From contig JAGVAS010000056.1 in assembly GCA_020060185.1 (NCBI GenBank), positions 3,734 to 67,733 of the forward strand: a DNA stretch of 64,000 bases, written 5' to 3'. Below, in pieces: positions 9,866 to 26,668 of the stretch (its first letter is position 1; every line of letters starts with the position of its first letter). Under the pieces are notes generated by a model, which saw only the letters and a program-made list of their open reading frames with translations, ran no database searches and had not been told where the DNA came from. Both the position numbers and the translations under genes were made by a program. The DNA comes from Desulfovibrio sp. Its GTDB lineage: Bacteria; Bacillota; Dethiobacteria; DTU022; UBA8154.

Positions 9866-11239
9866 CTAGCGATTTCTTATATAGACAACAGAACTCTCGT
9901 CCCTGTACGCTTCCTGCCAGAACCGTGATTCCCTTAAAGCAAGATCCTTCATTTGATTGACTCCCGTAAGAATCGTTTCTGCCCCGGTTTCGGCAATAAC
10001 CTCCCCGATGGGCTTTTCTGTTTGTCCCAAGTTTGCAAAACCATCCAGGATATCGTTATAAACGTCATTACGGCCATCTATATAGACAGGGACTCCCTTC
10101 CATATCAGGTAACCGCCCCAACCGTGGTCGTTGAACACTTTTTCATACCCCTGCGTGCTGATAAAATCAAGTGCCTCTACAGGATATCCTCCTTTTTTAG
10201 CTACGGCTTCCAAATTGGAGGGAAACCCTTTTACCCCCAGTACTACCGGCACGGCAATAAGTGAAATTATGGCAAGTCGTTTAATACTGCCCGCCCCCAG
10301 CTTAAAATTTAACAGCCCCATAAGCACCGCCGTGCTCAATACCGCGTAGGGTGAGTAAATCCGGGACATCAGTGCCAGGGCCCAGAATCCTGCGGCACGG
10401 GCAAACTCTAAATCTTTTTCCCTACCCTGCCGCACAGCCACAAAAAGGATTACGATAGAGATAAAAAACATTAAGGCCAGGATATTAAAGCCAAAAACAT
10501 ACGGCATCCAGCTGTAAATGCTTTCACGGTATCTGCTGGATAATAATCCTTCACCGACGGCATAAGCACAGAGGTTAAGGCCGTGGGGGTTAAGCAGGGT
10601 GGCAACTCCGGCCGAGACCGCCGCTGCCAGGCGCCAGCGTATAGTTTCCCACTTTTCCCTGTTAATAAGGAATTTCCAGGCGGTTTCTGCCAGCAGAAGC
10701 AAGGGAAACATTACGGCCGTGGAATGAATATTTCCCCAGAGAAGTGCCAGCCCTGCCGCAAACAGGGTTTCTCTCCAGCCCCACTTGTTGCGCAGGGAAA
10801 AAAAGAGATAGACGGAAAACAATGCGTAAACCCCTGCCTGCGGCCAGGGTTTCAGCCATCCCATGAGCAGTAAAGGAGCGAGCGCCCCAGCAGCAGAAGC
10901 GATCTGCTCCGAAACACCCCTCGCTTTTAGGCCGCTGCGGATCAGTACCCCCGCCATCAGTACCATGAGAAACGCCAGCAGCCAAAGCCCTAGAATTCCC
11001 GTTCTCCGGTGGATAACATACATTAAGGCTTCCCAGAGCCACTGGTGTGCTGTCCAGGGTTGTCCAAAAACACTCCAGGAATAAACATCTGTCCTGGGAA
11101 CGGCAAGATGGGAAACGATCCACTCCCCTACCTTCAGGTGCCAGAAAACGTCGGGGTCAGCCATCCACAGAGATCCCGCCATAACAATTAAAGAGCACCC
11201 GAGGATGTACAGTATTCCCCATTTCTTCCCGGTTAGCAA
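9866..11239 (-). CDS. polytopic membrane protein, possible GT-C fold glycosyltransferase
   Basis: 457 aa with about 10 predicted TM segments and a C-terminal soluble region; no motif I can name with certainty. Confidence 0.35.
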   Translation of the reverse strand: MLTGKKWGILYILGCSLIVMAGSLWMADPDVFWHLKVGEWIVSHLAVPRTDVYSWSVFGQPWTAHQWLWEALMYVIHRRTGILGLWLLAFLMVLMAGVLIRSGLKARGVSEQIASAAGALAPLLLMGWLKPWPQAGVYALFSVYLFFSLRNKWGWRETLFAAGLALLWGNIHSTAVMFPLLLLAETAWKFLINREKWETIRWRLAAAVSAGVATLLNPHGLNLCAYAVGEGLLSSRYRESIYSWMPYVFGFNILALMFFISIVILFVAVRQGREKDLEFARAAGFWALALMSRIYSPYAVLSTAVLMGLLNFKLGAGSIKRLAIISLIAVPVVLGVKGFPSNLEAVAKKGGYPVEALDFISTQGYEKVFNDHGWGGYLIWKGVPVYIDGRNDVYNDILDGFANLGQTEKPIGEVIAETGAETILTGVNQMKDLALRESRFWQEAYRDESSVVYIRNR

Positions 11240-11314: not shown

Positions 11315-11674
11315 TTATATTTCCTCCAGCTTTACTTCGTCTCCGCTTACGGTTTCCGTTTTGCTGAAAGTGCCCGCCGGCGCCTCAATAACGAAACTGC
11401 CCTTTTTCACAGCAGGACTGAATTTAAAAGCAGGCATTCTCTCAATCAAGTAACAAATTCGATTGTGCTTGTCCACAAAGGCCACATCGATGGGAAAAGA
11501 CATGCCCACGGTGTGCACCGCCTGGCACGGTTTTATAACTATTCCCTTTCCGGGAGGGAGGCCACTGCGCCCCAAAAGCCCCTTCAAGCGCAGGTAAAAA
11601 TTGTCCGCCACTTCCGCCTCATCCAAAATGATATTACCTTTAGAAAGGTTTGTAACTCTTACTTTTTTCATCAC
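11315..11674 (-). CDS. DUF192 (ACR, COG1430) family protein, last gene of the tad operon
   Basis: 119 aa; GLLGRSGLPPGKGIVIKPCQAVHTVGMSFPIDVAFVD matches the DUF192 signature; overlaps the upstream VWA gene by 4 nt. Confidence 0.6.
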   Translation of the reverse strand: MMKKVRVTNLSKGNIILDEAEVADNFYLRLKGLLGRSGLPPGKGIVIKPCQAVHTVGMSFPIDVAFVDKHNRICYLIERMPAFKFSPAVKKGSFVIEAPAGTFSKTETVSGDEVKLEEI

Positions 11675-14237: not shown

Positions 14238-15167
14238 TTATAACATGTTCCCAAATGCCTGCATAATCCTAATAAAAGCCGGGCCCAAAAGAACCACGAA
14301 CAGTGCCGGGAAGATAAAAAAAACAAGGGGGAAAAGCATTTTAATAGGAGCCTTCATGGCGGCCTCTTCTGCCCGCTGACGGCGTTTCTGCCTCATCGTC
14401 CCCGCCTGAATACGCAGGGTGCTGGCGATATTGCTTCCCAGTTGTTCCGACTGGATGATGGCGCTGACAAAGGTGCTTAAATCCGTCACTCCGGTACGCC
14501 TGACTATCCCCCGCAGGGCCTCTTCACGTGTTTTACCCATGCGCATTTCATCTAAAGCCCGGGAAATCTCTTTGTTGAGGGCACCGGATGACTGCTCCAC
14601 CACCCGTTTCAAGGACATGTCAAAACTTAACCCCGCCTCCACGCTTACCAACAGCAGATCCAGGATATCCGGCAGGGCTTTCTGGATCTGCTTCTGGCGC
14701 TTCAAAGCCCGTGAATTAACCATATTTAAAGGTACCATTGCTCCAACGATAACACCCATGATAACAAGGAAAAATGCCCTTGAACCTTCTGTATGGGTAA
14801 GCCAGACCATACCCAGGGCTAAAAAGCCGAAGAGCGCTCCCATTAAAACTTGTAAAGATATGAAGCTATTAAAATTCATATTCCAGGGATTACCCGCATA
14901 GACTATCTTTTTTTCGATATTATTTCGTATTTCCCTGGGTGTTAAATTTCCCAGGGTATTCCCAATATTGCGGTAGGCAGGTTTAATCAGCCTGTCTAAA
15001 AAGGATTTCCTAAGCTCATCATCTTCTTCGGTTGTTCCTTCAATTTTTTTTATTTCAGAAAGCCTTTCCGCTACCAGGTGTTTGTGGGCAAATGTTGCTT
15101 CATAGGTGGCAATCACCAGCAGTACAATGGTAACAAAAACCATGATGTTTATTATAAGCCCGGGCAT
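14238..15167 (-). CDS. tadC: type II secretion system F-domain protein TadC
   Basis: 309 aa polytopic T2SSF-family protein adjacent to tadB and cpaF. Confidence 0.7.
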   Translation of the reverse strand: MPGLIINIMVFVTIVLLVIATYEATFAHKHLVAERLSEIKKIEGTTEEDDELRKSFLDRLIKPAYRNIGNTLGNLTPREIRNNIEKKIVYAGNPWNMNFNSFISLQVLMGALFGFLALGMVWLTHTEGSRAFFLVIMGVIVGAMVPLNMVNSRALKRQKQIQKALPDILDLLLVSVEAGLSFDMSLKRVVEQSSGALNKEISRALDEMRMGKTREEALRGIVRRTGVTDLSTFVSAIIQSEQLGSNIASTLRIQAGTMRQKRRQRAEEAAMKAPIKMLFPLVFFIFPALFVVLLGPAFIRIMQAFGNML

Positions 15168-15184
15168 ATTCCCACCTCTTTAAA

Positions 15185-16159
15185 TTATACCTCTATATTG
15201 ATGATCTTTTGAATAATGATTATACCTAGAAATTGCATAATTATAGCCAGGACCAGCATTATAATCCCCAGTGTATCCTGGACAAGGGTTAACATGTACT
15301 CCGGGTTCATAACCATCAAAAAGCCAGCTACGGCTATTGGCAGAAGGATAATAATGACTGCTGATAGCCTCCCCTGTGCTGTCAGTGTTTTAATCTCCCC
15401 TTTGATTCTCACCCTTTCCCGGACAGTGTGAGAAATATTATCTAGAATCTCGGCCAGATTGCCGCCCACCTGCTTTTGGATAAGCAATGCCGTGATAAAC
15501 AGGTTGAGGTCATCACTGTCGGTTCTTTCTTTAAGGTTCTGCAGTACTTCCTCCAGAGGTTTTCCCATGCGGTTCTCCCAGATCACCCGGGCAAATTCCT
15601 CTCCGATAGGCAGTCCCATTTCCCTGCTCACCACAGACATGGCCTGGGGAAAACTGTAACCGGCCCTGAGGCCGCTGGAGACAATTTGCAGCGCTTCGGG
15701 AAGCTGCTGTGTTAGGGTGTTTAACCTTTTTGCTTTTTTAAGATTTACGAACAGACCGGGAATTTTAAAGCCTACTATCCCTACCAGTAAAGCTATAAGC
15801 AGGTTTGCCGTCATTAAATAGGTTACACAAAACAAACCTGCACCACAGAAAATTGTCAACCCGATAAATTCTTCAGCGCGCATTAGAATATGGGCACGGA
15901 GAAGCTTCTGTTGGATAGCTTTTAGGTTGGAACGGCGTGAAAGCATTGCTCCCAGCATCCCCGAAAAGTGTAAAAACTCCCCCCCGAAGCCCTTCGCCCT
16001 GGCCGCATCAAACTGCTGCTGCAAGGCGCCGGGACCCATGGTGTGAATTTTTAACCTCTCCATTACGGCCAGGCGGGAAGCAAAAAGGAAATGGTATATG
16101 ACTATTGTAGAAAAAAGTATAGTGAGAAAGGCACCGCCTAAAACAATATAATAAAACAT
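15185..16159 (-). CDS. tadB: type II secretion system F-domain protein TadB
   Basis: 324 aa T2SSF-type membrane protein immediately downstream of cpaF. Confidence 0.7.
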   Translation of the reverse strand: MFYYIVLGGAFLTILFSTIVIYHFLFASRLAVMERLKIHTMGPGALQQQFDAARAKGFGGEFLHFSGMLGAMLSRRSNLKAIQQKLLRAHILMRAEEFIGLTIFCGAGLFCVTYLMTANLLIALLVGIVGFKIPGLFVNLKKAKRLNTLTQQLPEALQIVSSGLRAGYSFPQAMSVVSREMGLPIGEEFARVIWENRMGKPLEEVLQNLKERTDSDDLNLFITALLIQKQVGGNLAEILDNISHTVRERVRIKGEIKTLTAQGRLSAVIIILLPIAVAGFLMVMNPEYMLTLVQDTLGIIMLVLAIIMQFLGIIIIQKIINIEV

Positions 16160-16182
16160 TTAAGGCCTCCAATAGGTCGTTT

Positions 16183-17532
16183 CTAAGTTATTTGTTTAAA
16201 AACATCCATGGTAATGTTTTCCCCAAAAGCCTTCAGTTTGTCCATGCATTTGGGAACTATACCGGTGGGCATATTTTTTCCGATAACCTGGCCTTTTTCG
16301 TTAAGCCCGGTTTGTTTAAAAACAAAGATATCCTGCAAGGTAACAGTGTCCCCCTCCATCCCCACCACTTCCGTTATCTTGACAATTTTGCGGCTGCCGT
16401 CGTTGAAACGGGCCTGGTGAATAATCAGGTCAACAGCGGATGCTATTTGCTCACGGATGGCCCGCAGTGGCAAGTCCATGCCTGCCATCAATACCATGGT
16501 TTCAAGCCGGGCCAGGGCATCCCTGGGATTATTGGCGTGCAAAGTAGAAATAGAACCGTCATGGCCGGTATTCATGGCCTGCAGCATATCAAGGGCCTCC
16601 CCCCCCCTGACTTCTCCAACCACGATACGATCCGGGCGCATCCGCAGGGAGTTGATAACCAGATTACGGATCGTAACTTGTCCCTTACCTTCAATATCGG
16701 GAGGCCGGCTTTCCAGAGTTACAACGTGCTCCTGCCTGAGCTGCAACTCCGCAGCATCTTCAATGGTAATAATCCTGTCCTTCTCCGGAATAAAGCTGGA
16801 AAGCACATTTAAGGTGGTGGTTTTACCGCTGCCTGTTCCGCCGGAAACTAGAATATTTATGCGTGCCCGCACGCAAGCCTTCATAAACCTGGCCATTTCC
16901 CGGGTCATTGTTCCAAAAGAGATTAAATCCTCGGCAGTAAAGGGATCGGTAGCAAATTTACGGATAGTTAGTGTAGGCCCCTTGATAGCCAGCGGAGGTA
17001 TGATGGCATTTACACGGGAGCCGTCCGGCAAACGCGCATCCACCATGGGGGAGCTCTCGTCAATCCTTCTTCCCAACGGGGTAATAATTTTATCTATGGT
17101 ATGAATAACATGGGCGTTATCACGGAAGGTTATATCTGTTTTCATGATCTTCCCATCACGTTCCACATACACGTGCTGACTGCCGTTAACCATGATTTCG
17201 GAAACGGATGGATCGTGAATAAGAGAGTTGATGGGGCCATAACCAAAAATTTCGTCAGAGACGTATTTAACAATTTTCTGCTTATCAGCCTGTGAAAGAT
17301 GCCGCCCAAACTCTTCCAATATCACGTCCACGGTATCATTGATTTGCTCCAGAAACTGTTTCTTTTGAAAAGTATCCATTTTTTCCAGGACGAGGGTATC
17401 ATCCATAGTATCAATAACCTGCCGCAATGTTTCCGTAACGACATCTTCAAGTTCTTTTTTCTTATTTAACGCCGGTTCCCTTAGATCGGGTTTTGTACCG
17501 TTATTTCGAAAAGACTGTTTAGGGGACATCAT
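16183..17532 (-). CDS. cpaF: Flp pilus assembly ATPase CpaF/TadA
   Basis: 449 aa; ILVSGGTGSGKTTTLNVLSSFIP Walker A; VirB11/CpaF-like secretion ATPase. Confidence 0.9.
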   Translation of the reverse strand: MMSPKQSFRNNGTKPDLREPALNKKKELEDVVTETLRQVIDTMDDTLVLEKMDTFQKKQFLEQINDTVDVILEEFGRHLSQADKQKIVKYVSDEIFGYGPINSLIHDPSVSEIMVNGSQHVYVERDGKIMKTDITFRDNAHVIHTIDKIITPLGRRIDESSPMVDARLPDGSRVNAIIPPLAIKGPTLTIRKFATDPFTAEDLISFGTMTREMARFMKACVRARINILVSGGTGSGKTTTLNVLSSFIPEKDRIITIEDAAELQLRQEHVVTLESRPPDIEGKGQVTIRNLVINSLRMRPDRIVVGEVRGGEALDMLQAMNTGHDGSISTLHANNPRDALARLETMVLMAGMDLPLRAIREQIASAVDLIIHQARFNDGSRKIVKITEVVGMEGDTVTLQDIFVFKQTGLNEKGQVIGKNMPTGIVPKCMDKLKAFGENITMDVFKQIT

Positions 17533-17546
17533 TTTACCTCGCCTTT

Positions 17547-18752
17547 CTATTCCACAGCTTCAACAGCGTTTTCACTTTTTTCTATCACTTTTTCCTGGCT
17601 GCTTCCTGAAATTTTACGTGTCAAATCCAGAAAACTGCGGCTTATCTTTGCCCGGGGATAAAGAAGCACTACAGGTATCCCTTTATTCAATGAAGAGGAC
17701 ACCAGCTTGTGTTCTTCCGGTATAATCGCATAAAGATTATAATTTAAAGTCGTTTCTACATCCCTGGTTTTAATATCACTACGGGATTCTGCCCTGTTAA
17801 GCAGCAACTTTATCTTTTGCCTGGGATAATTTAAGGAATTCAGAGATACCATACAGGCTTTGATATTTCGAATAGCAGCCACATCCTGGGTGGTTACCAG
17901 CAAGAGCAAATCAGCTTCCTGGAAAGCAGAGTCAATGGCTTCATAAAATCTTGCCGGCATATCGACAACTACATAATCAAAAAAACTCTGCAGAACCTTG
18001 ATAATGATCTCGATATGCTCCGCATTGATAAATTCGGCCATCTGCGGCTGAGCGTTTGCAGCCAGGACCTTAATCCCGGAGCGGTGCGGGATCAGGTAGC
18101 TTTCCATTAAATCATGGTCCAGGTTGCGTATATCATTGACAACATCCGTAATGGTATAGCGGGGAATTATATTTAAAGCGAGTGCAGCATTACCAAAATC
18201 CAAATCCAGGTCGACAAGAACAACCTTCTCCCTGGTATGCTGTGCCAGGGAAACCGCCAGGTTAGTGGCAATAAAGGTCCTGCCCACCCCACCTTTTGTA
18301 CTAAAGACAGTAATAACCTGGCCCTTCTGGGACTTTTTCTTCAGGACAGAAGTTTTATCCCGGTGGATAACCTGCTTTTTTCTTTCCAGCTGGTAAGTAC
18401 GGTAGATGGAATCTACCAGTTTGGACGGAGAAAAGGGGTAAATCAGCATATCTTTGGCACCGGCAAAGATAGCTTTGCGCATCGTTTCTTCCCGTAAATC
18501 TTCTTCGATCATAATTATGGAGACCCAGGGGGAAGATCCGGTCACCTTTTCAGCCAGCTTGTAACCGTCTCCCGGAACATAGGCTCCAATAAGCATTACA
18601 TCCGGGATAGCCCTGTCCAGCATTTCCAGCGCTTCTTCCGCCGACCCCGCTTCTCCCGTCAAAGTAATATATTCTACATTGGAGAGGATATTAAGAACAG
18701 TTGACCTCTTTTCAGGATCATCTTCTACTATCAGAACCTTTATGTGTTCCAC
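17547..18752 (-). CDS. cpaE: CpaE/TadZ pilus-assembly ParA/MinD-like ATPase with N-terminal pseudo-receiver domain
   Basis: 401 aa; N-terminal REC-like fold (KVLIVEDD) lacking the phospho-Asp (DVMLIG); deviant Walker A VFSTKGGVGRT. Confidence 0.8.
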   Translation of the reverse strand: MEHIKVLIVEDDPEKRSTVLNILSNVEYITLTGEAGSAEEALEMLDRAIPDVMLIGAYVPGDGYKLAEKVTGSSPWVSIIMIEEDLREETMRKAIFAGAKDMLIYPFSPSKLVDSIYRTYQLERKKQVIHRDKTSVLKKKSQKGQVITVFSTKGGVGRTFIATNLAVSLAQHTREKVVLVDLDLDFGNAALALNIIPRYTITDVVNDIRNLDHDLMESYLIPHRSGIKVLAANAQPQMAEFINAEHIEIIIKVLQSFFDYVVVDMPARFYEAIDSAFQEADLLLLVTTQDVAAIRNIKACMVSLNSLNYPRQKIKLLLNRAESRSDIKTRDVETTLNYNLYAIIPEEHKLVSSSLNKGIPVVLLYPRAKISRSFLDLTRKISGSSQEKVIEKSENAVEAVE

Positions 18753-18756
18753 ATTT

Positions 18757-19482
18757 TCACCTCTCCCTGAAAGTTTCGAAGTTATCGGAGTTATAGTAAT
18801 CTAATTCAACTATTTCCTCATCCATAGGGGAGCGTAAGGTTAAATGAAAGGTACCCTTCAGATTTGCATACGCCAGTACTTCAGCCTGGGCCGGATTAAC
18901 ACCCAGTGTAACTGTACTTACAAGATGCCTTTCTTCATTATCTTGTTCTCTTGTAAACTCCCCGGTAGCCAGTACGAGTGCATTTTGAACTACTGTATAA
19001 ACAGTCATTACATCATTAATATCCGGATCGTTATAGGCAACCAGCACATCCACTTTATCACCAGGGGAAACATAACCGGAAACCCCGGGCACTTCACTTA
19101 CAGGGATAGAAATAGCCCGCAGCTTTTCCGGTACCCTGTAAGAAAGGCTGGCCCGTCTTTCTTCCGTAGCAACCCTGCTGGCTAGAACCTGCTCTCCTTT
19201 AACGATATCCGACCTGGAAATACCTCCCACTGCATCAGCCGCATTCCTTAAAGCTTCAGGATGTACAGCCTCCGAAGGAATAGATTCCGTAGTGAGCATC
19301 TCCGCTGTAATTCTGGTATGTCGAGGTATGGTGATTTTAGCTGTAATTACCTTAGTCTGGGAAACAGGAGTCAAAGTAAGTGTGTCGGGAGAAGATAAAT
19401 TCTTAATATATGAATTTAAGGCAATAACGGTTATAAGTCCCAAAAATACTGCTACTATTAAAAGACGTTTGTTGACTTTCAA
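18757..19482 (-). CDS. cpaB: Flp pilus assembly protein CpaB/RcpC (SAF domain plus C-terminal beta-clip)
   Basis: 241 aa; N-terminal TM; C-terminal ISIPVSEVPGVSGYVSPGDKVDVL...AQAEVLAYA motif. Confidence 0.75.
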   Translation of the reverse strand: MKVNKRLLIVAVFLGLITVIALNSYIKNLSSPDTLTLTPVSQTKVITAKITIPRHTRITAEMLTTESIPSEAVHPEALRNAADAVGGISRSDIVKGEQVLASRVATEERRASLSYRVPEKLRAISIPVSEVPGVSGYVSPGDKVDVLVAYNDPDINDVMTVYTVVQNALVLATGEFTREQDNEERHLVSTVTLGVNPAQAEVLAYANLKGTFHLTLRSPMDEEIVELDYYNSDNFETFRER

Positions 19483-19512
19483 TGATTAGTTACTCCTTTC
19501 AAATACATTACT

Positions 19513-20616
19513 TTATTTAATTAAGTGCACTCTCACAGCCCCCGAATTTATAATTCTGGGACAACCATATATAACTTCGATGATATCTCCTGATAGCACA
19601 TGTTGATTTCCTATTTCCTCATAATGGAGATTTTCTGCATATGCAAAAATATATTGACCATTTGAAATTACTTCTCTTCCAGAAAAAGTCTCCACAATAG
19701 ATGGCAGAACCAAAAGAATCCAACCTTTGTAACCCTGTCTTTCCAACCGTATTCCAAGCGGGGAGTTAGCATAATTTGGTGTTACAATAGCTGCAACCTG
19801 GCCGGGATCATTTTTTAGAACCCCGATGGAGCTGTATATAGGATTTTCGATGCCATTTAATAGCACTTGTGAGATATTACTTGCCGAACCGAAATCAGTT
19901 AGATCCAGCAACCCCCAGTTTCCGGATAAGTCAGATCTCCTCCATAAAGAAAAGTTGATTTTATCTTCTTTTTCAATAAGGCAGTCAAGGATATAATAAA
20001 AATGTTCTAATTCGTTCTTCCAATTCAAATCTTTAAAAACTCCATTATTTTTTACATTTATGCGAATGGCTGTTCCAGTACTCCCTGCATCTAACATTAA
20101 TTCAGTACTATCTTCGTGAGTATAAAAAATTTCTCCTACAGTACCACCATTTTTCATGTCCTCTATTTTATTCTCTATGTCCTGGTAGTTAAGAACATGA
20201 AAAGGCAATAAATCCTGTCCCACTATATCTGCTGATGCAGTTGCTTCAGCACTTACAATATAATCATCATTTGCAAACATTTTTCCAAGTAACCGGGGAT
20301 AATTGTCCCTTATTAATACCTTAACTTCCCGGTTATTATTTTGCTTGGTTGCAATTACTATCCCATCTGAAATATTGTGTTTATTTGCATAGGATAATGC
20401 AATTGCCTGAACATCACCGGCTGGCAACTCAAAAGCAGCTGCCAGCGCAGCAGCATCAGCTGCATTTTGTAAATTCCTTCTTTGAAAATAAAGATAGCCA
20501 ACATCTATAACCAGCGCTGTTAACCCAAGTAAAACAACCATAGAGGCTGCAACAATAATCAAGGCTGCACCTTTTTGATCATTTAAAAGTTTAAATATTT
20601 TTTTCACCATACTCAC
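19513..20616 (-). CDS. tadG: TadG-like pseudopilin / Tad_N-domain pilus assembly protein
   Basis: 367 aa; N-terminal AALIIVAASMVVLLGLTALVIDVGYLY...NAADAAALAAA typical of the TadE/G-like N-terminal domain. Confidence 0.6.
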   Translation of the reverse strand: MSMVKKIFKLLNDQKGAALIIVAASMVVLLGLTALVIDVGYLYFQRRNLQNAADAAALAAAFELPAGDVQAIALSYANKHNISDGIVIATKQNNNREVKVLIRDNYPRLLGKMFANDDYIVSAEATASADIVGQDLLPFHVLNYQDIENKIEDMKNGGTVGEIFYTHEDSTELMLDAGSTGTAIRINVKNNGVFKDLNWKNELEHFYYILDCLIEKEDKINFSLWRRSDLSGNWGLLDLTDFGSASNISQVLLNGIENPIYSSIGVLKNDPGQVAAIVTPNYANSPLGIRLERQGYKGWILLVLPSIVETFSGREVISNGQYIFAYAENLHYEEIGNQHVLSGDIIEVIYGCPRIINSGAVRVHLIK

Positions 20617-20638
20617 TTCCTAAAGGAAATACCTTAAA

Positions 20639-21412
20639 TTAAAAACTGCCTGGTTTATTAAAACCTTGATTAATAGGATTTCCATCCCACGTATAGCCTA
20701 ACTTATTTACATTTGTAATTACGATTATGTAATTGCCATCAGGAGCACCATGTATCTGATGAAAAAATCTGGCAACCTCTATAACCGCTATCCCCGATGA
20801 ATTCGTAGTTCCGGGAATTCCTCCGGCATACAGGGAACCATCTTGTTGATCTATTCTTATGTTTACATCTGCACCTTGGATTGGACGATCCAAAGTAATA
20901 GTCACGTTTAAATCATTAACAACTTTAGTGGGATTAATTGAACTGACACCTAAATATTCCGGCGCACCCGGTCCGCCTGATGCAAGTTGCCCTACTTCGA
21001 TACGCATCGATGCTACGGAGGATAGTGGGAAAGTATCCCCTATTATCCTGTTTAAAAACGGCACTACTATATCCACAGAGCCATTTACTGTCACCTTGGT
21101 TTCCTCCCCTACCACACGGTCTAAAGCATTGGCAGGTGTAATAACAATAGAGCTTTCACTAATGTTTACAAAACCAGTCGACGAAGCTGCATTTATAACT
21201 TTTGTTCTAACATTTTCATAAGTTTCTCCCAGAGCAGCCGCACGGACACCTTCTCTGGCAGCATGGGTCATGGAAACCTGGCCATTAAAGATTAAACCAA
21301 ATTGTATAATTCCAAAAAGTATTGGTGGAAGCACAAACACTAATAAAAGAGCGAACTCTACCAATGACTGTCCTTTTTCGTTTGTTTTAAAAAAGGAAAA
21401 GAAATTGAACAA
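20639..21412 (-). CDS. tadE: TadE-like pseudopilin
   Basis: 257 aa; N-terminal GQSLVEFALLLVFVLPPILFGIIQFG TadE signature; non-ATG (TTG) start in the track, which overlaps the cpaA 3' end by 55 nt, so the true start may lie further downstream. Confidence 0.65.
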   Translation of the reverse strand: MFNFFSFFKTNEKGQSLVEFALLLVFVLPPILFGIIQFGLIFNGQVSMTHAAREGVRAAALGETYENVRTKVINAASSTGFVNISESSIVITPANALDRVVGEETKVTVNGSVDIVVPFLNRIIGDTFPLSSVASMRIEVGQLASGGPGAPEYLGVSSINPTKVVNDLNVTITLDRPIQGADVNIRIDQQDGSLYAGGIPGTTNSSGIAVIEVARFFHQIHGAPDGNYIIVITNVNKLGYTWDGNPINQGFNKPGSF

Positions 21413-22035
21413 TATTTTTCACATCCGAATGTATAAAATACTGTTGATAATGGCAATATTTGTCCTCCCAGGTTACTTAAGACAATAAGTGTTCCAAGGA
21501 CTATGGCAACCCCATAAGGCAGAAAAAGCTTTTTTTCCTCTTGCTTTTTTTCACTGGGAGAAAAAAAGAGCGAAAGCCTGTTTAAAAAGGAAAATCCGAA
21601 TTTTAAGTAAAGGACATTTAATAAAGGTACAGCAACTATCGCTAAAATTTTTTTCAAAAAACTAAGCAGTTGACCATTAGCAATTAAAAAAACAATGGCT
21701 AGCCCTCCCCCACATAGTACGGTAAAAAGGGCGGCATGAAATACAAACTGTGCACCTTTCATTGCTCCAATGGCTCCCAGGAGTTTCACGTCTCCTCCTC
21801 CCATACCACCCATTACAAATGGTATTATGAAGAGGCCGATTCCTAAAAGAAGGCCGTAGGAGCTAAATAAAAACCCTTCAAACCTGCCCGTAACTGTATT
21901 TGAAAATAAACCCCAAAGCATGACTGGAAAGGTCAGGAAGTTGGGGATTTTTTTCTTAGTCAGATCAAAGTAGAGTGAGGAAAATAACAAAGAAAAAAGT
22001 ATATATTCGTTAAATTGTAATTCCACAATTAGCAC
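21358..22035 (-). CDS. cpaA: prepilin peptidase CpaA/TadV (A24 family)
   Basis: 225 aa polytopic; GGMGGGDVKLLGAIGAMKG catalytic-Asp region of A24 peptidases. Confidence 0.75.
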   Translation of the reverse strand: MLIVELQFNEYILFSLLFSSLYFDLTKKKIPNFLTFPVMLWGLFSNTVTGRFEGFLFSSYGLLLGIGLFIIPFVMGGMGGGDVKLLGAIGAMKGAQFVFHAALFTVLCGGGLAIVFLIANGQLLSFLKKILAIVAVPLLNVLYLKFGFSFLNRLSLFFSPSEKKQEEKKLFLPYGVAIVLGTLIVLSNLGGQILPLSTVFYTFGCEKYCSISFPFLKQTKKDSHW

Positions 22036-22217: not shown

Positions 22218-22412
22218 TTATAAAGCATTAGTAATAGTTTGGAATACATTTCTAATTTGATCGCCTAATAATGTCAAAGCAACAATAACCACAACAGCAA
22301 TCAATACTAGAATAAGTGCATATTCCGCCAAGCCTTGTCCTTCTTCATCCTTAATAAATCTTAAAATCATATTTAACATTTTTATTTTACCTCCATTTAC
22401 TAGGAATTTCAA
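22218..22412 (-). CDS. flp: Flp/Fap family type IVb pilin
   Basis: 64 aa; GQGLAEYALILVLIAVVVIVAL contains the G/XXXXEY processing motif and hydrophobic helix of Flp pilins. Confidence 0.8.
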   Translation of the reverse strand: MKFLVNGGKIKMLNMILRFIKDEEGQGLAEYALILVLIAVVVIVALTLLGDQIRNVFQTITNAL

Positions 22413-22528
22413 TGAAAACGTGGAAAGAAAACCCTCTATAATAATACTTTTCCAACCGCACCCTTTTTCCCCTCATCAGACACCTCCCTAAAAATGGAAT
22501 TATGTTAGAGTGGAATTGCTGGTATGTG

Positions 22529-24631
22529 CTAATTTTTGTATACTACTTTAGTAGTATGAGAGTTGGGACATAAAGTTAAATGGAAGGATCCTTTCAGGTA
22601 GGCATAGGCCAATATTTCGGCCTGTTGGGGAGTAACGGCGAGGATTACCATGTCTCGCGGATTTTTTTCTTCATTTTCTTTTTTCCCACTGCCATCTTTG
22701 ATTGCCAGTATTAAGGCATTCTGAACAGTTGTAGAGGCAGCAGGAACCCTATTTAAGCTCTTTTCTTCATAAGTAATCAATACGTCCACCCTATCCCCCG
22801 GATTGATTAGCCCACAAAGCCCGGTTACCTTATTTACAGGAATGGAAATACCACGCATATTTTCCGGTATCCGGCTGGACAGTCCCTGCCGGTTTTTGCC
22901 TTTAGCTTCAGAAGAGAAAGCATGTGCAACTTTTATTTCTTCTGTTAAAACCCCTATTTCTTCTGTTATACCCTCTTCTACTTGCTCAGAACGCAGGGTG
23001 ACAGGTAGACCCTGTTCTACAACATGACTGGAATTATTTTCGACGATAACTTTTTCTGTATGATTTGTATTTTTAGTATTAACAGAGTCCTCCAGGTTTT
23101 GATAATCATTGTCATATTCATTTTCAGTAAACTCGTTTTCATCCTGCATGTAATTTGAGGCCGTAGGTTCTGGTTCCATAGAGTTTTCCTTATCTTCATT
23201 TGTATGTGTATCTGTATCAATTAAAGTTTGTAATTGATCGGGAGATGTTTCGCTATTCCGAATCCATTCCATAAATTCAGCGGCCACAATAGCCTCCCCG
23301 TGAGCCTTCAGTTTATCAAGGCACCCGGGAATTATCCCCGTAGCAACATGTTTCCCGATAACATTGCCGTTACCATCAACTTCTGAATGTTCAAAAACGA
23401 AGATATCCTGTAAAGTGATGTTATCCCCTTCCATCCCTACTACTTCGCTAATCCTGGTGATCCTGCGGCTTCCGTCACTGAAACGGGATTGTTGAATAAT
23501 TAACTCGATGGCAGAGCTGATCTGCTCCCTGATGGCACGTAAAGGCAGCTCCATACCAGCCATCAGGACCATGGTTTCCAGGCGAGCCAGGGCATCCCTG
23601 GGGTTATTGGCATGCAGAGTGGAAATAGAACCGTCATGGCCGGTATTCATCGCCTGCAGCATGTCCAGGGCTTCACCGCCCCTGACCTCCCCTACCACGA
23701 TACGGTCCGGGCGCATACGCAGGGAATTGATTACCAGCTCACGAATGGTAAACTGCCCCCTGCCCTCAATATTTGCAGGCCGGCTTTCCAGGGTAACGAC
23801 GTGATTCTGGCAAAGCTGCAGCTCAGCGGTATCTTCAATGGTAACGATTCTTTCTTTATCCGGGATGAAACTGGAAAGCACATTTAAGGTAGTGGTTTTT
23901 CCGCTGCCGGTCCCACCGGACACAATGATGTTGATCCGTGATCGCACACAGGACTTTAAGAACATGGCCATCTCCCTGGTCATGGTTCCCAATTTAATTA
24001 ATTCTTCTACAGTAAAGGGATCTTTGGAGAATTTCCGGATAGTTATGGAGGGTCCCTTAAGAGCCAGGGGCGGGATAATGGCATTAACCCGGGAACCATC
24101 AGGCAACCGGGCATCGACCGTTGGAGAACTTTCATCTATTCTTCTTCCCAAGGGAGTGATAATTCGGTTAATGGCATGCAGGACATGATCGTTATCCCTG
24201 AAGGTTATATCCGTCTTGGTAATTTTACCATCACGTTCTACAAAAACATTATCACAACCATTTACCATGATCTCCGTAACGGAAGGATCATTAAGCAGTG
24301 AGTTAATAGGCCCGTAGCCGAAAATCTCGTCCAAGACGTACTGGATCACCTTCTGCTTGTCGCCCTGGGAAAGGTGGCGGTTGCTCTCTTCAAGCAGCGC
24401 TAACAGGGTATCGTAGATCTGCTCCGTAAACTGCCTCTTTTGAAAGGCATCCAGTTTTTCCAGATCAATAGTATTATCTACACTGTCAATCACCCGGCGA
24501 AGGGTTTCGACGGCGATATCATCCAGTTCCTTTTTCTTATTTACACCCTGCTCCCTGGCAAGCAAATGAGGTCTTGCCCCGTTGATCTTTACAGCCTGTT
24601 TGGAAAACACCGCCACCCCACCTTTTTGCAT
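22529..24631 (-). CDS. fusion protein: CpaF/TadA secretion ATPase paralog + acidic linker + CpaB-type C-terminal (RcpC beta-clip) domain
   Basis: 700 aa. Residues about 1-450 are roughly 75% identical to CpaF (16183..17532), with IIVSGGTGSGKTTTLNVLSSFIP. Residues 450-580 are a D/E/N-rich low-complexity stretch. The C-terminus GISIPVNKVTGLCGLINPGDRVDVLITY...QQAEILAYAYLKGSFHLTL parallels the CpaB C-terminus. Confidence 0.75.
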   Translation of the reverse strand: MQKGGVAVFSKQAVKINGARPHLLAREQGVNKKKELDDIAVETLRRVIDSVDNTIDLEKLDAFQKRQFTEQIYDTLLALLEESNRHLSQGDKQKVIQYVLDEIFGYGPINSLLNDPSVTEIMVNGCDNVFVERDGKITKTDITFRDNDHVLHAINRIITPLGRRIDESSPTVDARLPDGSRVNAIIPPLALKGPSITIRKFSKDPFTVEELIKLGTMTREMAMFLKSCVRSRINIIVSGGTGSGKTTTLNVLSSFIPDKERIVTIEDTAELQLCQNHVVTLESRPANIEGRGQFTIRELVINSLRMRPDRIVVGEVRGGEALDMLQAMNTGHDGSISTLHANNPRDALARLETMVLMAGMELPLRAIREQISSAIELIIQQSRFSDGSRRITRISEVVGMEGDNITLQDIFVFEHSEVDGNGNVIGKHVATGIIPGCLDKLKAHGEAIVAAEFMEWIRNSETSPDQLQTLIDTDTHTNEDKENSMEPEPTASNYMQDENEFTENEYDNDYQNLEDSVNTKNTNHTEKVIVENNSSHVVEQGLPVTLRSEQVEEGITEEIGVLTEEIKVAHAFSSEAKGKNRQGLSSRIPENMRGISIPVNKVTGLCGLINPGDRVDVLITYEEKSLNRVPAASTTVQNALILAIKDGSGKKENEEKNPRDMVILAVTPQQAEILAYAYLKGSFHLTLCPNSHTTKVVYKN

Positions 24632-24664
24632 TACTCTAAAATAGATACCCTAAGCGAGGAATAA

Positions 24665-24700
24665 AAATAAAATCCCGGCCAGGCCGAGAAAAAGGACATT
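24665..24700 (-). terminator. intrinsic terminator (expression platform of riboswitch 2)
   Basis: Minus strand CUCGG-CCUGG-CCGGG hairpin followed by AUUUUAUUUUUAUU; lies between the aptamer and the ATG at 24631. Confidence 0.55.
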
Positions 24701-24721: not shown

Positions 24722-24845
24722 AGTCCTGTCTTCGGCAACCTGGCAATCATAGCTCATTTAGAGCCTTAGACCCATGGCTTTGCGTCCCATCCTTTTGGGT
24801 GGTTTGCCTTTATCGGTCAAGGAAGCTATTTCCTTACCTCAATCA
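24722..24845 (-). ncRNA. cyclic-di-GMP-I (GEMM) riboswitch aptamer, copy 2
   Basis: Minus strand GGCAAACCACCCAAAAGGAUGGGACGCAAAGCCAUGGGUCUAAGG...GCCAGGUUGCCGAAGACAGG matches the GEMM-I consensus (GGCAAACC..GAAAG..GGGACGCAAAGCC.CGGGUCU). Confidence 0.75.
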
Positions 24846-24918: not shown

Positions 24919-26139
24919 CTAAGAAACATTCCTGAGAAAGATCTGGTTAGACACCTCCAGCGAATTAAGGTAGAACTCTTTAACCTCCTTTTCCTCCAGC
25001 TCCAATTTGGCTGCCTTCCTGGAAAGCCTTTCCCAATCACCCGTTTCATAGGCTAAAATTAGCTCATAGATATCCCTGAACCTGCTTTTACCCCCCAGCA
25101 AGGCAGTTTTAATATCTTCAGAGATGGGCAGTTGCGCCAGGATATCACTTAAAGGCTGGTCCAGAAAAGCGTCCATCAGGGAAAACATCCCCATGAGAAA
25201 AAGATCGGAATTGCGGTTCTTCAGGCCGACCCTGGGGGCTATCAACTCGCAGAACTTGGCCCGGCAGATAGCCGTAATGATCAGCTCATCAGGTTTATTC
25301 TCACCGATGCTTTTGAGGGAAATCAAGGAAAGCCATTTGCTGATCTCTTTCTTGCCCAGCAAAACCAGTGCCTGCCGGATGGAGCGGATTTCGCTACGAA
25401 AACCAAAGGCCAGGGAATTAATAAATTTAAGCAGCTTGTAGGAAAGGGAGACATCCATTTTAATAAGCTTCTCCAGCCTGTCAAAATCTAGTTCCGGCTT
25501 GTTGATCTCCTGCAGTATTTTAAGGTAGGTAAGCTTGAAGCTGGGAATATCCCGGCCGGAAACGATATCTGGTTTACTGAAGAAATATCCCTGAAAATAG
25601 GAATAGCCCATTTCCACAGCCTGGACAAAATCCTCCCTGGTCTCCACTTTCTCCGCCAGAAAAAGAGCTTTATGCGGCTCGATTCTCTGCACTACGGCCC
25701 TTCTTTGTTCTACAGGCGTGGTTAGAAAGTCAACCTTAATGATATCCACAAGGTCGAGGAGGGGCTTAAAGATATCGTCATAAAGAAAATCGTCCAGGGC
25801 CAGGAGGTAACCCAGTTCCTTTAACTTCCGGCAGGCAGCCAGCATCTTCTCGTCCGGCTCGATATCCTGTAAAATCTCTACCACGATAAGATCGTTGGGG
25901 AGAAGAGTAGCAACATCATTTTCCAGCAAATTTCTGGTGAAGTTGATAAAAGCCTTTTTCCTCCTAGTAAGTGTCTCCAAGCCAATGAGAAGAAAGCTGT
26001 TGGTAATAACTTCCGAGGAGGCCTGGTCACCGTTCAGGCTGGAATAGAACTTATTAGCCCCGGAACGGTATAACAGCTCGTAGGCGTAAACTTCCTGCTG
26101 CTTGTTAAAGATCGGTTGCCTGGCCACATAGATTTCCAT
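24919..26139 (-). CDS. EAL domain + HDOD domain protein (c-di-GMP phosphodiesterase-type signalling protein)
   Basis: 406 aa; EAL-domain motifs ARQPIF...YELLYR, IKVD, AEKVET, FQGYFFSKP; C-terminal HDOD-like helical region. Confidence 0.7.
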   Translation of the reverse strand: MEIYVARQPIFNKQQEVYAYELLYRSGANKFYSSLNGDQASSEVITNSFLLIGLETLTRRKKAFINFTRNLLENDVATLLPNDLIVVEILQDIEPDEKMLAACRKLKELGYLLALDDFLYDDIFKPLLDLVDIIKVDFLTTPVEQRRAVVQRIEPHKALFLAEKVETREDFVQAVEMGYSYFQGYFFSKPDIVSGRDIPSFKLTYLKILQEINKPELDFDRLEKLIKMDVSLSYKLLKFINSLAFGFRSEIRSIRQALVLLGKKEISKWLSLISLKSIGENKPDELIITAICRAKFCELIAPRVGLKNRNSDLFLMGMFSLMDAFLDQPLSDILAQLPISEDIKTALLGGKSRFRDIYELILAYETGDWERLSRKAAKLELEEKEVKEFYLNSLEVSNQIFLRNVS

Positions 26140-26480: not shown

Positions 26481-26510
26481 ACCGAAAAATCCCCGGCCAG
26501 GCCGGGGATC
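26481..26510 (-). terminator. intrinsic terminator (expression platform of riboswitch 1)
   Basis: Minus strand CCCCGG-CCUGG-CCGGGG 6-bp GC stem followed by AUUUUUC. Confidence 0.65.
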
Positions 26511-26540
26511 AGGGCTCAAAAAATATCAATAAATACAAAA

Positions 26541-26668
26541 CCCCTGTCTTCGGCAGCCTGGCGATCCTGGTTCATAAGAACTTTAGACCCATAGCTTTGC
26601 GCCCCACCCTTTCGGATGGTTTGCCTTTGTCGGTCAAGAAGTTACTCCTTGCTTCTTTATAATACTTT
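26541..26668 (-). ncRNA. cyclic-di-GMP-I (GEMM) riboswitch aptamer, copy 1
   Basis: Minus strand GGCAAACCAUCCGAAAGGGUGGGGCGCAAAGCUAUGGGUCUAAAG...GCCAGGCUGCCGAAGACAGGGG; about 85-90% identical to copy 2 including the expression platform. Confidence 0.75.

Follow-up and report, generated by a model that had tools for sequence, protein, structure and literature searches.

A conserved CpaF-RcpC fusion protein linked to a c-di-GMP riboswitch in Dethiobacteria

Organization of the locus

The window, a stretch of 64,000 nucleotides of DNA, contains an ORF of 700 codons on the minus strand (22529..24631, from an ATG at 24631 to a TAA) that encodes a CpaF-type ATPase, a linker and an RcpC (D2) domain in one protein, with zero internal stops. 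This ORF had been proposed in an earlier sequence-only reading of the window and proved to be real, with its strand corrected to minus. The flp pilin gene (22218..22379, minus strand; Pfam Flp_Fap, E value 7.9e-11) lies directly 3' of the fusion and probably starts at an ATG at 22379 behind a GGAGG; the ORF listing gives a TTG at 22412. Neither a terminator scan nor inspection of the sequence found a terminator between the fusion and flp. The remainder of the canonical Tad operon follows on the minus strand (14238..22035) and, as assigned with Pfam and NCBIfam, consists of genes for a prepilin peptidase (22035-21358), TadE (21412-20639), a TadG-like protein (20616-19513), CpaB (19482-18757), REC-TadZ/CpaE (18752-17547), the canonical CpaF (17532-16183), TadB (16159-15185) and TadC (15167-14238). 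The CpaB encoded here has the usual membrane anchor, identified by hydropathy, together with SAF and RcpC domains.

Directly 5' of the fusion lies a c-di-GMP-I riboswitch, described below, and directly 5' of both, also on the minus strand, is a gene identified with Pfam as encoding an EAL-HDOD protein (24919..26139). Its HDOD domain scored 74 bits, while its EAL domain scored 44 bits and covered only profile positions 94-236.

The fusion gene and its ATPase module

The true start of the fusion is likely to be a GTG at 24610, seven codons past the ATG, giving a protein of 693 amino acids, because a Shine-Dalgarno sequence, AAAGGTGGGG, precedes this GTG, the database protein P0001 is 100% identical to the 693 amino acid product, and the N termini of homologues (MFSK or VFSK) agree with this start.

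The first part of the protein (residues ~8-460; 23252..24610, minus strand) is a CpaF/TadA-type ATPase module consisting of an N-terminal helical domain and a T2SSE core. Pfam T2SSE (PF00437) matched residues 106-381 with an E value of 1.1e-69 and 235 bits (cut-off 24.9), PF27713 was among the precomputed domains, and the top database matches carry the name CpaF. The earlier description of this half as a second CpaF was correct, as it is 75% identical over 443 amino acids to the canonical CpaF of the operon. The Walker A (GGTGSGKTT), Walker B (RPDRIVVGEVRG) and His box (TGHDGSISTLH) motifs are present, and all three are intact in 18 of 18 members of the fusion family. Only three lineage-specific substitutions were found in the fusion ATPases (N155, T268 and D276). 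These data suggest that the fusion ATPase is a catalytically competent motor, with a putative hexameric state and a putative role in powering a pilus. We also searched the fusion with Pfam for a c-di-GMP-binding domain (MshEN or PilZ) and detected none.

The linker and the C-terminal domain

The ATPase is followed by an acidic, N-rich and intrinsically disordered linker (residues ~471-579; 22895..23221, minus strand), defined by its charge and by AlphaFold2 (AF2) confidence. The acidic D/E/N-rich character noted previously was borne out: residues 471-582 contain 27 D/E, 8 K/R and 13 N and have a net charge of -19. AF2 folded the ATPase module (pLDDT mostly 80-97) and the C-terminal domain (pLDDT 82) and left the linker disordered, with pLDDT below 50 over residues 472-579. 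Across the family the linker ranges from 65 to 630 amino acids and is net acidic in every member, and in 6-7 of the 18 fusions it contains Ig-like CLIPPER_2/DUF11 repeats. A junction motif (IPEW/PGW) was considered as a possible fusion-specific feature and rejected, as it aligns with a conserved aromatic at the C terminus of canonical CpaF and marks the end of the ATPase.

The extreme C terminus (residues ~580-692; 22556..22894, minus strand) is an RcpC/CpaB D2-type domain, as determined by Pfam, NCBIfam, and sequence and fold searches against solved structures. Pfam RcpC (PF16976) matched residues 583-687 (E value 2.1e-24; 86.1 bits, cut-off 28.8), so that both the T2SSE and RcpC domains were significant by HMM, and the NCBIfam CpaB equivalog TIGR03177 scored 96.4 bits (cut-off 71), limited to positions 100-218 of its 262. 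The domain is 50% identical to the C-terminal domain of the CpaB encoded in the operon (E value 3e-34) and contains both motifs quoted for it earlier (RGISIPVNK...PGDRVDVL and QQAEILAYA). A profile of the fusion family matched RcpC in PDB entry 9gzr (E value 1.9e-9), and in a fold search with the AF2 model the same structure was the sole significant match (E value 2e-6, TM 0.65), with no alternative fold reaching significance. A word-indexed protein search using D2 alone gave only eight matches and was not informative. The C-terminal domain had been described as the C-terminal half of CpaB. This holds for the D2 (Pfam RcpC) domain, while the TM helix, SAF/D1, the L3 linker and the beta-hairpin are missing: Pfam found no SAF hit in the fusion, although the CpaB of the operon does have SAF, and the protein ends ~13 residues past the last D2 strand, with neither L3 nor hairpin.

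In the RcpC ring of P. aeruginosa, R130 and D153 form an inter-subunit contact (PMC12307814), and the matching R and D are kept family-wide in the fusion D2 domains. Since synonymous sites were saturated in every pair of fusions compared, only the order of dN values was used; dN was 0.12-0.25 for the ATPase segment, 0.39-0.67 for D2 and 0.68-1.16 for the linker, the highest of the three. The lower dN of D2 relative to the linker, along with retention of the R/D pair, indicates that D2 is functional and under purifying selection.

A conserved family with a single origin

We identified 18 full-length homologues with the same architecture in NCBI, JGI, ENA and Logan assemblies. The complete genome of Ca. 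Contubernalis (CP054699) carries the fusion, and uninterrupted fusion ORFs were also translated at four loci, L001, L002, L003 and L005. We rejected an assembly or frameshift artefact, or a chimera, because the uninterrupted ORF recurs in these divergent proteins and loci across independent assemblies. The D2 sequences of the family are themselves diverged, at about 30-55% identity.

In a tree of ATPase sequences, all 18 fusions fell within a clade of 21 tips, and the canonical CpaF of the window fell outside it. Three CpaFs of canonical length nest within this clade, which may reflect loss of the tail or error in the tree. In the D2 tree, the D2 domains of the fusions formed one clade, with the lineage's own CpaB D2 as its sister. 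The sole intruder in that clade, P0123, results from an internal start being called within the fusion ORF at L005. Both halves of the fusion are near-monophyletic and stem from the cpaF and cpaB genes of this lineage itself. Judged by its sequences, the fusion is a conserved, lineage-specific family within a small group of Gram-positive anaerobes, the Dethiobacteria, and not a one-off.

Several sequences were examined as possible split versions of the fusion. P0026, which is short and groups with the fusion ATPases, is a normal CpaF encoded in an EAL-HDOD-cpaF-tadB-tadC operon; P0123 (annotated as a CpaB of 199 amino acids) was rejected as a separate linker-D2 gene, being the internal-start call noted above; and P0121, P0143, P0144, P0145, P0156, P0194, P0210 and P0218 seem to be fusion fragments. 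A wide taxonomic spread was also considered, since 14 loci from a genome scan (in Pelotomaculum, Desulfosporosinus, Sporosarcina, Actinobacteria and others) gave matches that reached residue ~687. At the ORF level these proved to be joined pieces of canonical cpaB-tadZ-cpaF operons, with L005 alone being a true fusion.

The fusion lies in a Tad operon with TadB/TadC, Flp and a prepilin peptidase in the window and at L003, L005 and L088, where it heads the same transcript as flp, and stands alone, away from Tad genes, at L001, L086 and L087. The EAL-HDOD gene is directly 5' of the fusion in the window and at L005, L085 and L088, and is 5' of a canonical CpaF gene at L004; it is not in the immediate neighborhood of the fusion at L001, L002, L086 or L087. 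The sequence-only reading did not know such a protein as a described Tad component, and in the library searched we likewise found no paper on a CpaF-RcpC fusion or this architecture, on Dethiobacter pili, or on a c-di-GMP riboswitch linked to CpaF. This architecture is genuine and conserved and seems not to have been described before; the functions proposed for it are considered below.

Riboswitches

The c-di-GMP-I aptamer directly 5' of the fusion gene (24731..24818, minus strand) matched the full length of the Rfam model RF01051 with 86.1 bits (gathering score 35), in the sense orientation and 100 nt 5' of the ATG. A riboswitch directly upstream and flp directly downstream had both been reported, and both adjoin the fusion. 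Across the family the strongest conserved link is the riboswitch and not flp, since an aptamer of the c-di-GMP-I clan is at the equivalent position in nine of nine fusion loci, including those of stand-alone genes. Some fusions, among them those at L005, L087 and L088, have the GGC-variant aptamer at their 5' side.

An intrinsic-terminator-like hairpin (UCUCGGCCUGGCCGGGA) with a U-run, found with a terminator scan (24663..24689, minus strand), lies 42 nt after the aptamer and would serve as the expression platform. When the transcript was folded before the 3' arm of the terminator exists, the 5' arm paired with positions 80-87 of the aptamer to form a mutually exclusive anti-terminator. The same arm paired with the 3' strand of the aptamer in six of nine fusion leaders; the pairing was weak at L001 (two pairs) and failed in three of nine leaders (L003, L087 and L088). 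This arrangement suggests an OFF switch, with both c-di-GMP binding and the change in read-through being predicted, and with the ON/OFF call based only on minimum-free-energy folding.

A second riboswitch lies upstream of the EAL-HDOD gene (26488..26634, minus strand), composed of a c-di-GMP-I-GGC variant aptamer (26634-26548; Rfam RF03167, 74.8 bits, gathering score 59) and a terminator-like hairpin (26510-26488), and it has the same anti-terminator logic. Should the switch before the fusion be OFF and no internal promoter exist, c-di-GMP would silence flp and the whole Tad operon of the window as well. The usual link of c-di-GMP to adhesion is positive, the opposite of such control.

Location of the C-terminal tail

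The joining of a cytoplasmic motor to a domain known from the outside of the cell had been regarded as topologically odd, and we searched for features that might carry the tail across the membrane. By hydropathy, the stretch that separates the domains contains no TM segment; the maximum KD19 of the fusion was 1.18, as compared to 2.39 for the anchor of the operon's CpaB. No TM segment, signal peptide or class III pilin leader was found in any of the 18 members (maximum KD19 <1.7), and hydropathy peaks throughout the family fall within folded domains. The possibility of a hidden TM segment in the longer linkers was rejected, since the top peaks there sit inside D2 or the Ig-like repeats, as was a conserved amphipathic helix beside D2 that might replace L3, since the sequences 5' of D2 have no conserved element. 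Cysteine is present in 15 of 17 fusion D2 domains, as compared to none of 23 anchored CpaB D2 domains. Daniels et al., in JBC in 2010, are said to have described the exclusion of cysteine from exported Firmicute proteins.

Given the absence of export signals and the presence of cysteines in the fusion D2, the tail, linker and D2 together, is most likely cytoplasmic. A cytoplasmic D2, and not an error in the sequence, is probably the best resolution of the topological oddity. The CLIPPER_2/DUF11 repeats are an uneasy fit with a cytoplasmic tail, as they are otherwise extracellular stalk domains.

Possible functions of the fusion

The reading that we favor, tentatively, is that the fusion is an alternative, c-di-GMP-gated motor subunit of the Tad machine that carries a D2 domain co-opted for self-association or docking. 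The fusion event itself happened a single time, in Dethiobacteria-type Bacillota, and joined a copy of cpaF to the D2 (RcpC) portion of CpaB from the same system; the entire protein would remain in the cytoplasm. There the CpaF hexamer would bear six long, acidic, disordered tails, each tipped by a D2 domain and, in some relatives, interspersed with the CLIPPER_2 repeats. The riboswitch and terminator would gate transcription so that the fusion is made when c-di-GMP is low, and the expressed protein would compete or co-assemble with canonical CpaF at the TadB/TadC platform and alter the action of the machine. Engagement of this platform is assumed, and several fusion genes that are not beside tadB/tadC count against it. 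Released from its extracellular role, the tethered D2 may act as a cytoplasmic module for self-association or docking that clusters or restrains the motor.

A bolder form of this proposal, in which D2 domains taken over from the alignment protein outside the cell form a new ring around the motor within the cytoplasm, is somewhat improbable. The P. aeruginosa ring assembles through D1-D1, D1-D2 and L3-D2 interfaces, and RcpC33-233, which has D1 and D2 without L3, is monomeric, L3 being needed for oligomerization (PMC12307814). Since the fusion lacks the D1 and L3 interfaces, self-association of its isolated D2 is not assured.

It is also conceivable, and in our estimation unlikely, that the fusion is a dominant-negative or sequestering regulator that mixes into CpaF hexamers or fills the TadB/TadC platform unproductively. 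The polyanionic tails and self-associating D2 domains would then hold the motor off the platform, or locked at it, and pili would be blocked at any time that the fusion is made. Identity of 75% to canonical CpaF makes hetero-oligomers plausible, every family member has the acidic disordered tail, and the stand-alone riboswitch-fusion modules resemble regulators added to a machine that is encoded elsewhere. With an OFF riboswitch, c-di-GMP would de-repress piliation, which would restore the usual positive link to adhesion. A decoy needs no catalysis, however, yet the catalytic motifs are strict in 18 of 18 members and the ATPase half is strongly constrained; furthermore, the transcript shared with flp in the window and at L003, L005 and L088 would mean that inhibitor and pilin are induced together.

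We hold it to be equally unlikely that D2, instead of associating with itself, docks a specific cytoplasmic partner such as the EAL-HDOD protein, REC-TadZ/CpaE or another signaling protein, and so recruits the motor to a site or couples it to c-di-GMP or phospho-signaling at the protein level. The EAL-HDOD gene is adjacent at four fusion loci (the window, L005, L085 and L088) and precedes canonical CpaF at L004, and an isolated D2 is unlikely to make rings alone. In RcpC, the D2 groove (beta4/beta5) holds an amphipathic helix of the neighboring chain (PMC12307814) and is in principle a peptide-binding surface. Against this, the EAL-HDOD gene is missing from the immediate neighborhood at L001, L002, L086 and L087, and this partner is a candidate only.

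An extracytoplasmic tail, in which linker and D2 take an unrecognized route across the membrane, through or beside the TadB/TadC platform or once cleaved, and D2 becomes part of the CpaB collar outside, so that motor and collar are physically coupled, seems very improbable. RcpC D2 and CLIPPER_2/DUF11 are otherwise known only in extracytoplasmic proteins, the fusion D2 is closest to the CpaB D2 of the same organism, and the inter-subunit R/D pair is kept. The export signals are absent in all 18 members, however, a strongly acidic linker of 65-630 amino acids is a poor translocation substrate, and the cysteines of the fusion D2 set it apart from exported CpaB D2 domains. We know of no precedent for an extracytoplasmic route of such a tail. 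An artefact of assembly, frameshift or annotation, or a functionless chimeric pseudogene in decay, is effectively refuted by conservation: most members come from MAGs, and the C-terminal part is annotated in public data at least once as a "CpaB" of its own (P0123), but the ORF is uninterrupted in 18 divergent sequences from independent projects, including one complete genome, D2 still folds confidently and has a slower rate of evolution than the linker, and the riboswitch is conserved 5' at all nine loci.

Comparison with known systems and significance

CpaF/TadA is the bifunctional extension and retraction motor of the Tad pilus in Caulobacter. The fusion is homologous to it over its full length, with all catalytic motifs and the N-terminal helical domain, and is found in a Tad operon with TadB/TadC at four loci. 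It differs in its C-terminal extension of 240 (up to about 750) amino acids ending in RcpC D2, in forming its own paralogue clade that coexists with canonical CpaF, and in being always behind a c-di-GMP-I-clan riboswitch, at times encoded away from Tad genes. RcpC/CpaB is a protein of the Tad alignment complex and forms a dodecamer in P. aeruginosa (PDB 9gzr); its L3 carries an amphipathic helix and its C-terminal beta-hairpin contacts the secretin (PMC12307814). The fusion shares with it a bona fide D2/RcpC domain and the conserved inter-subunit R and D. Unlike RcpC/CpaB, the fusion has no TM anchor, SAF/D1, L3, secretin-binding beta-hairpin or export signal, and its D2, which has cysteines, is joined to a cytoplasmic ATPase.

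Type IV pilus motors are known to be controlled by c-di-GMP at the protein level, through MshE/PilB-type ATPases that bind it and through FimX-PilZ-PilB. The fusion would be alike in that a second messenger sets the motor activity of a type IV filament machine, but its input is an RNA switch before an extra motor paralogue. In C. difficile, the Cd1 c-di-GMP riboswitch before the flagellar operon is OFF and a class II riboswitch before pilA1 is ON. As in such Firmicute systems, a GEMM-I aptamer with an intrinsic terminator appears to control a surface-appendage operon, but here the regulated gene encodes a motor-ATPase fusion, not a pilin, and the module persists as a stand-alone unit. Cytoplasmic rings or adaptors at the ATPases of type IV filaments include PilM, the cytoplasmic domain of GspL and FlaH/FlaX of the archaellum, and an outer cytoplasmic ring has been seen by cryo-ET in the Tad machine of Caulobacter (PMC12637624). 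Laterally associating D2 domains would likewise form a ring or cage by the motor, a likeness by analogy only. There is no homology to these components, and the putative ring former derives from an extracellular alignment protein, with a disordered tether linking it covalently to the ATPase.

In current annotation pipelines these fusions are labeled simply as "CpaF/TadA" or are divided into two proteins, "CpaF" and "CpaB", and the architecture is thereby masked. Tad pili are widespread organelles of adhesion and colonization and are thought to use a single bifunctional ATPase. Their control by c-di-GMP is poorly understood, above all in Gram-positives, and the fusion family offers a compact, testable module of one riboswitch and one gene through which a dinucleotide would control an additional motor paralogue. 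It also appears to represent co-option onto a cytoplasmic motor of the RcpC D2 domain, known only from the extracytoplasmic alignment ring. If the tail were instead exported, it would tie the cytoplasmic ATPase covalently, across the membrane, to the alignment ring on the outside of a monoderm Tad machine; to our knowledge, no type IV filament system is known to couple motor and collar in this manner. A tail that self-associates or docks would provide a new way to organize or restrain a type IV filament ATPase.

Domain structure of the fusion gene

The 700-codon ORF recognized by the sequence-only reading (24631..22529) is real and contains no internal stop, with the refinements that it lies on the minus strand and that GTG 24610 is its probable true start. 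This GTG is preceded by a AAAGGTGGGG Shine-Dalgarno sequence, gives a 693 amino acid product 100% identical to the database entry for this protein (P0001), and agrees with the MFSK/VFSK N-termini of relatives. In Pfam, residues 106-381 match the T2SSE ATPase (235 bits) and residues 583-687 match RcpC/CpaB (86 bits, cut-off 28.8). Over 443 residues the ATPase half shares 75% identity with the canonical CpaF encoded in this operon (17532..16183), while the C-terminal domain shares 50% identity (E 3e-34) with that of the operon's CpaB (19482..18757). The linker between them, about residues 471-582, has a net charge of -19 and 13 Asn, in keeping with its description as acidic and D/E/N-rich. The claimed similarity to CpaB is significant in NCBIfam as well (CpaB equivalog, 96 bits, cut-off 71, profile positions 100-218 of 262 only), but it covers D2, the Pfam RcpC domain, and not D1, the L3 linker or the hairpin.

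An AlphaFold2 model built on a 58-sequence alignment was confident for the CpaF-like ATPase region and for a compact domain at residues 580-692, with residues 472-579 between them disordered (pLDDT < 50). Modeled by itself, the C-terminal domain had a pLDDT of 82, and its sole significant PDB fold match was Pseudomonas aeruginosa RcpC (9gzr; E 2e-6, TM 0.65), which was also matched in sequence by a profile built from the C-terminal domains of the family (E 1.9e-9). RcpC consists of a TM helix, D1 (SAF), D2, the L3 linker and a beta-hairpin that binds the secretin; its C12 ring is made by D2, oligomerization requires L3 and D1 contacts, and RcpC33-233 is monomeric (PMC12307814). When we number the alignment to 9gzr, the two most conserved D2 residues of the fusions, R13 and D36 of alignment A1, are equivalent to R130 and D153, a pair hydrogen-bonded between subunits of the ring (PMC12307814). 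The fusion shares only D2 with RcpC/CpaB and lacks the TM anchor, SAF/D1, L3 and hairpin, four of the five features that could be compared, whereas every CpaF/TadA feature that could be compared is present. We therefore refer to it as a CpaF paralogue with an RcpC-D2 domain, and not as a CpaB.

Distribution and annotation of the fusion family

Among the best 120 database matches, 18 proteins, drawn from NCBI, JGI, ENA and Logan assemblies, have both the ATPase and, at the C-terminus, an RcpC domain; one of them belongs to Ca. Contubernalis alkalaceticus (class Dethiobacteria), whose genome is complete (CP054699). In all 18, the linker is net-acidic and measures from 65 to about 630 residues, D2 is the extreme C-terminus, and the Walker A, Walker B and His-box motifs are intact. 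When 1.84 billion representatives were searched exhaustively with a profile, 15,276 proteins with an RcpC domain emerged (E up to 0.001); in the best 150 of these, the ATPase was borne only by known fusions and by fragments of additional ones. Scanning the GTDB species representatives added one true fusion (locus L005, a Bacillota MAG), while 14 more matches that looked long proved to be canonical cpaB-tadZ-cpaF operons whose pieces had been joined by the search tool. On these searches, the family is rare and lineage-restricted.

Public annotations name these proteins 'CpaF/TadA' or split them. At L005 (about 7640-8233), NCBI lists the last 199 amino acids of the fusion ORF as a 'Flp pilus assembly protein CpaB' (P0123), but the 737-codon ORF has no stop and P0123 is in frame with the ATPase; automated annotation thus conceals the fusion architecture. 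The searches also returned CpaF relatives that are covalent concatemers, with two or three complete tandem T2SSE domains per polypeptide (P0002-P0006, ~1150 aa; P0007-P0021, ~800-940 aa); P0002 has three Pfam T2SSE stretches (652 bits). Many other proteins (P0129-P0142 and others) had two to seven tandem RcpC/D2 domains, among them P0129 (1684 aa, seven copies) and P0135 (523 aa, three copies, no obvious TM), indicating that the range of architectures with D2 extends far beyond the classic TM-SAF-RcpC.

Origin and selection

In a neighbor-joining tree of ATPase domains the 18 fusions fell within one 21-tip clade, with the window's canonical CpaF outside. The clade held three short intruders; one of these, P0026, is an ordinary CpaF whose operon reads EAL-HDOD-cpaF-tadB-tadC. 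Only three ATPase positions separated fusions from canonical CpaFs: N155, T268 (adjoining the Asp box) and D276. In the D2 tree the fusions formed one clade, sister to CpaB D2 domains of the same bacterial lineage, with modest bootstrap support (123 of 200 replicates, up to two intruders allowed); its sole intruder, P0123, was discounted as the in-frame, internal-start annotation of the L005 ORF. The simplest history suggested by these trees would be a one-time fusion of a cpaF duplicate to the part of cpaB that encodes D2, with the linker lengthening afterwards. Synonymous sites were saturated in every pair compared, and domains were ranked by dN: 0.12-0.25 for the ATPase, 0.39-0.67 for D2 and 0.68-1.16 for the linker. 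D2 lies below the linker and is thus constrained.

Riboswitches and gene neighborhood

The gene lies, as had been noted, under a riboswitch: a c-di-GMP-I aptamer at 24818-24731 (minus strand, 86 bits), downstream of which a terminator scan found a GC-rich hairpin and U-run (24689-24673, minus strand). An aptamer of the c-di-GMP-I clan (RF01051 or the GGC variant RF03167) is directly upstream of the fusion gene in all nine loci, the window and eight relatives, and is its tightest association. In folding of the transcript before the 3' arm is made, the terminator 5' arm pairs with the aptamer 3' strand in six of nine fusion leaders (in L001 the pairing amounts to two pairs only), and the leader of EAL-HDOD, the gene upstream, showed the same pairing. 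Judged from folding alone, the fusion leader would have an OFF switch architecture, in which the ligand-stabilized aptamer leads to termination.

The fusion heads an operon with flp and the full Tad set in the window, L003, L005 and L088. In L085 it follows a Tad operon and several GGDEF/EAL genes, and it stands alone in L001 and the syntenic L086, in L087 near PilZ/GGDEF genes, and in L002 beside polysaccharide genes. The adjacency to flp holds in the window, with a 150-nt spacer and no evident terminator between the genes. The spacer has a 29-codon ORF (MRGKRVRLEKYYYRGFSFHVFIEIPSKWR; 22387-22476, minus strand) with a GGGAGG Shine-Dalgarno sequence, which may be spurious.

EAL-HDOD is the immediate upstream neighbor of the fusion in the window, L005, L085 and L088, and precedes canonical cpaF in L004. 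The window copy (24919-26139, minus strand) is preceded by a c-di-GMP-I-GGC variant riboswitch (26548-26634, minus strand, 74.8 bits) with a terminator-like hairpin (26488-26510, minus strand). Its EAL match covers profile positions 94-236 only, so the domain may be degenerate and receptor-type. Compared with the window, L088 has its two aptamer types exchanged. L005 has three c-di-GMP-I-clan riboswitches within 6 kb (387-476, 3197-3283 and 5938-6043), preceding a GAF-histidine kinase, a transglutaminase-like protein (then EAL-HDOD) and the fusion; in L004 a GGC riboswitch, a transglutaminase-like gene, EAL-HDOD and cpaF again follow one another. Around its Tad genes, this lineage seems to employ c-di-GMP riboswitches very densely.

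The window's Tad operon is followed by a VWA protein (14226..11671), a 457-aa ORF that could not be annotated (11239..9866) and, further downstream, a third T2SSE-family ATPase (8530-9642, minus strand), a genuine member of the PilT/PilU family (TIGR01420, 480 bits, cut-off 319). A PilT beside a Tad locus is unusual, since Tad systems are not known to have dedicated retraction ATPases. The arrangement of a T2SSE gene and then a phosphoglycerate-mutase-type gene, downstream of tadB/tadC, occurs in L004 too. The TadZ/CpaE homologue (17547-18752, minus strand) begins with a Response_reg domain (53.5 bits, cut-off 30.2) that is by score a genuine receiver and not just a degenerate TadZ_N domain, which suggests that the organism places or assembles its Tad machine under phospho-control.

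Possible function of the fusion

The sequence-only observation is confirmed, and its interpretation, as refined, is supported. The analysis shows a conserved CpaF paralogue, probably catalytically competent, that has a disordered acidic tether, a folded D2 and no export signal and is encoded behind a riboswitch. We infer a cytoplasmic, hexameric protein, produced mainly when c-di-GMP is low, that would work at the TadB/TadC platform used by CpaF, by itself or in mixed hexamers; the c-di-GMP level would thereby set the cell's motor composition. Six tethered D2 domains might permit multivalent lateral association or docking, and it is tempting to speculate that two hexamers would supply 12 D2 domains, as many as the C12 ring of P. 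aeruginosa contains. Caution is needed on D2 association, because RcpC oligomerization depends on D1 and L3.

Alternatively, D2 may serve as an adaptor that binds one particular partner, for example EAL-HDOD or REC-TadZ. The fusion could also be a dominant-negative, sequestering subunit, but the strictly conserved catalytic motifs favor an active motor over such a decoy. Export of the tail to join an external collar is disfavored. The main observation at odds with a cytoplasmic tail is that linkers of 6-7 members also carry CLIPPER_2/DUF11 Ig-like repeats, which elsewhere are extracellular stalk domains (PMC12617251). Against export, none of the 18 fusions has a signal peptide, TM segment or pilin-type leader, and cysteine is present in 15 of 17 fusion D2 domains (mean 2.1) and in none of 23 membrane-anchored CpaB D2 domains. 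Daniels et al. (2010, J Biol Chem) are said to have found exported Firmicutes proteins to be characteristically without cysteine; in this compositional test, which adds independent support for a non-exported tail, the D2 of the fusions thus behaves as if cytoplasmic and that of CpaB as if exported. The weakest alternative, a frameshift or assembly artefact, is rejected, the fusion being conserved in separate assemblies, including a complete genome, with a single stop-free ORF covering both domains at each of four re-translated loci.

The supposition that no such Tad component had been described agrees with the searchable literature, in which we found no mention of a CpaF-RcpC-type fusion or of a c-di-GMP riboswitch before cpaF. 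While function and mechanism are our inference, the architecture and the invariable riboswitch linkage should surprise a specialist and are readily testable. Within the Tad system the fusion represents a new domain architecture and a new regulatory module, rather than another kind of system.
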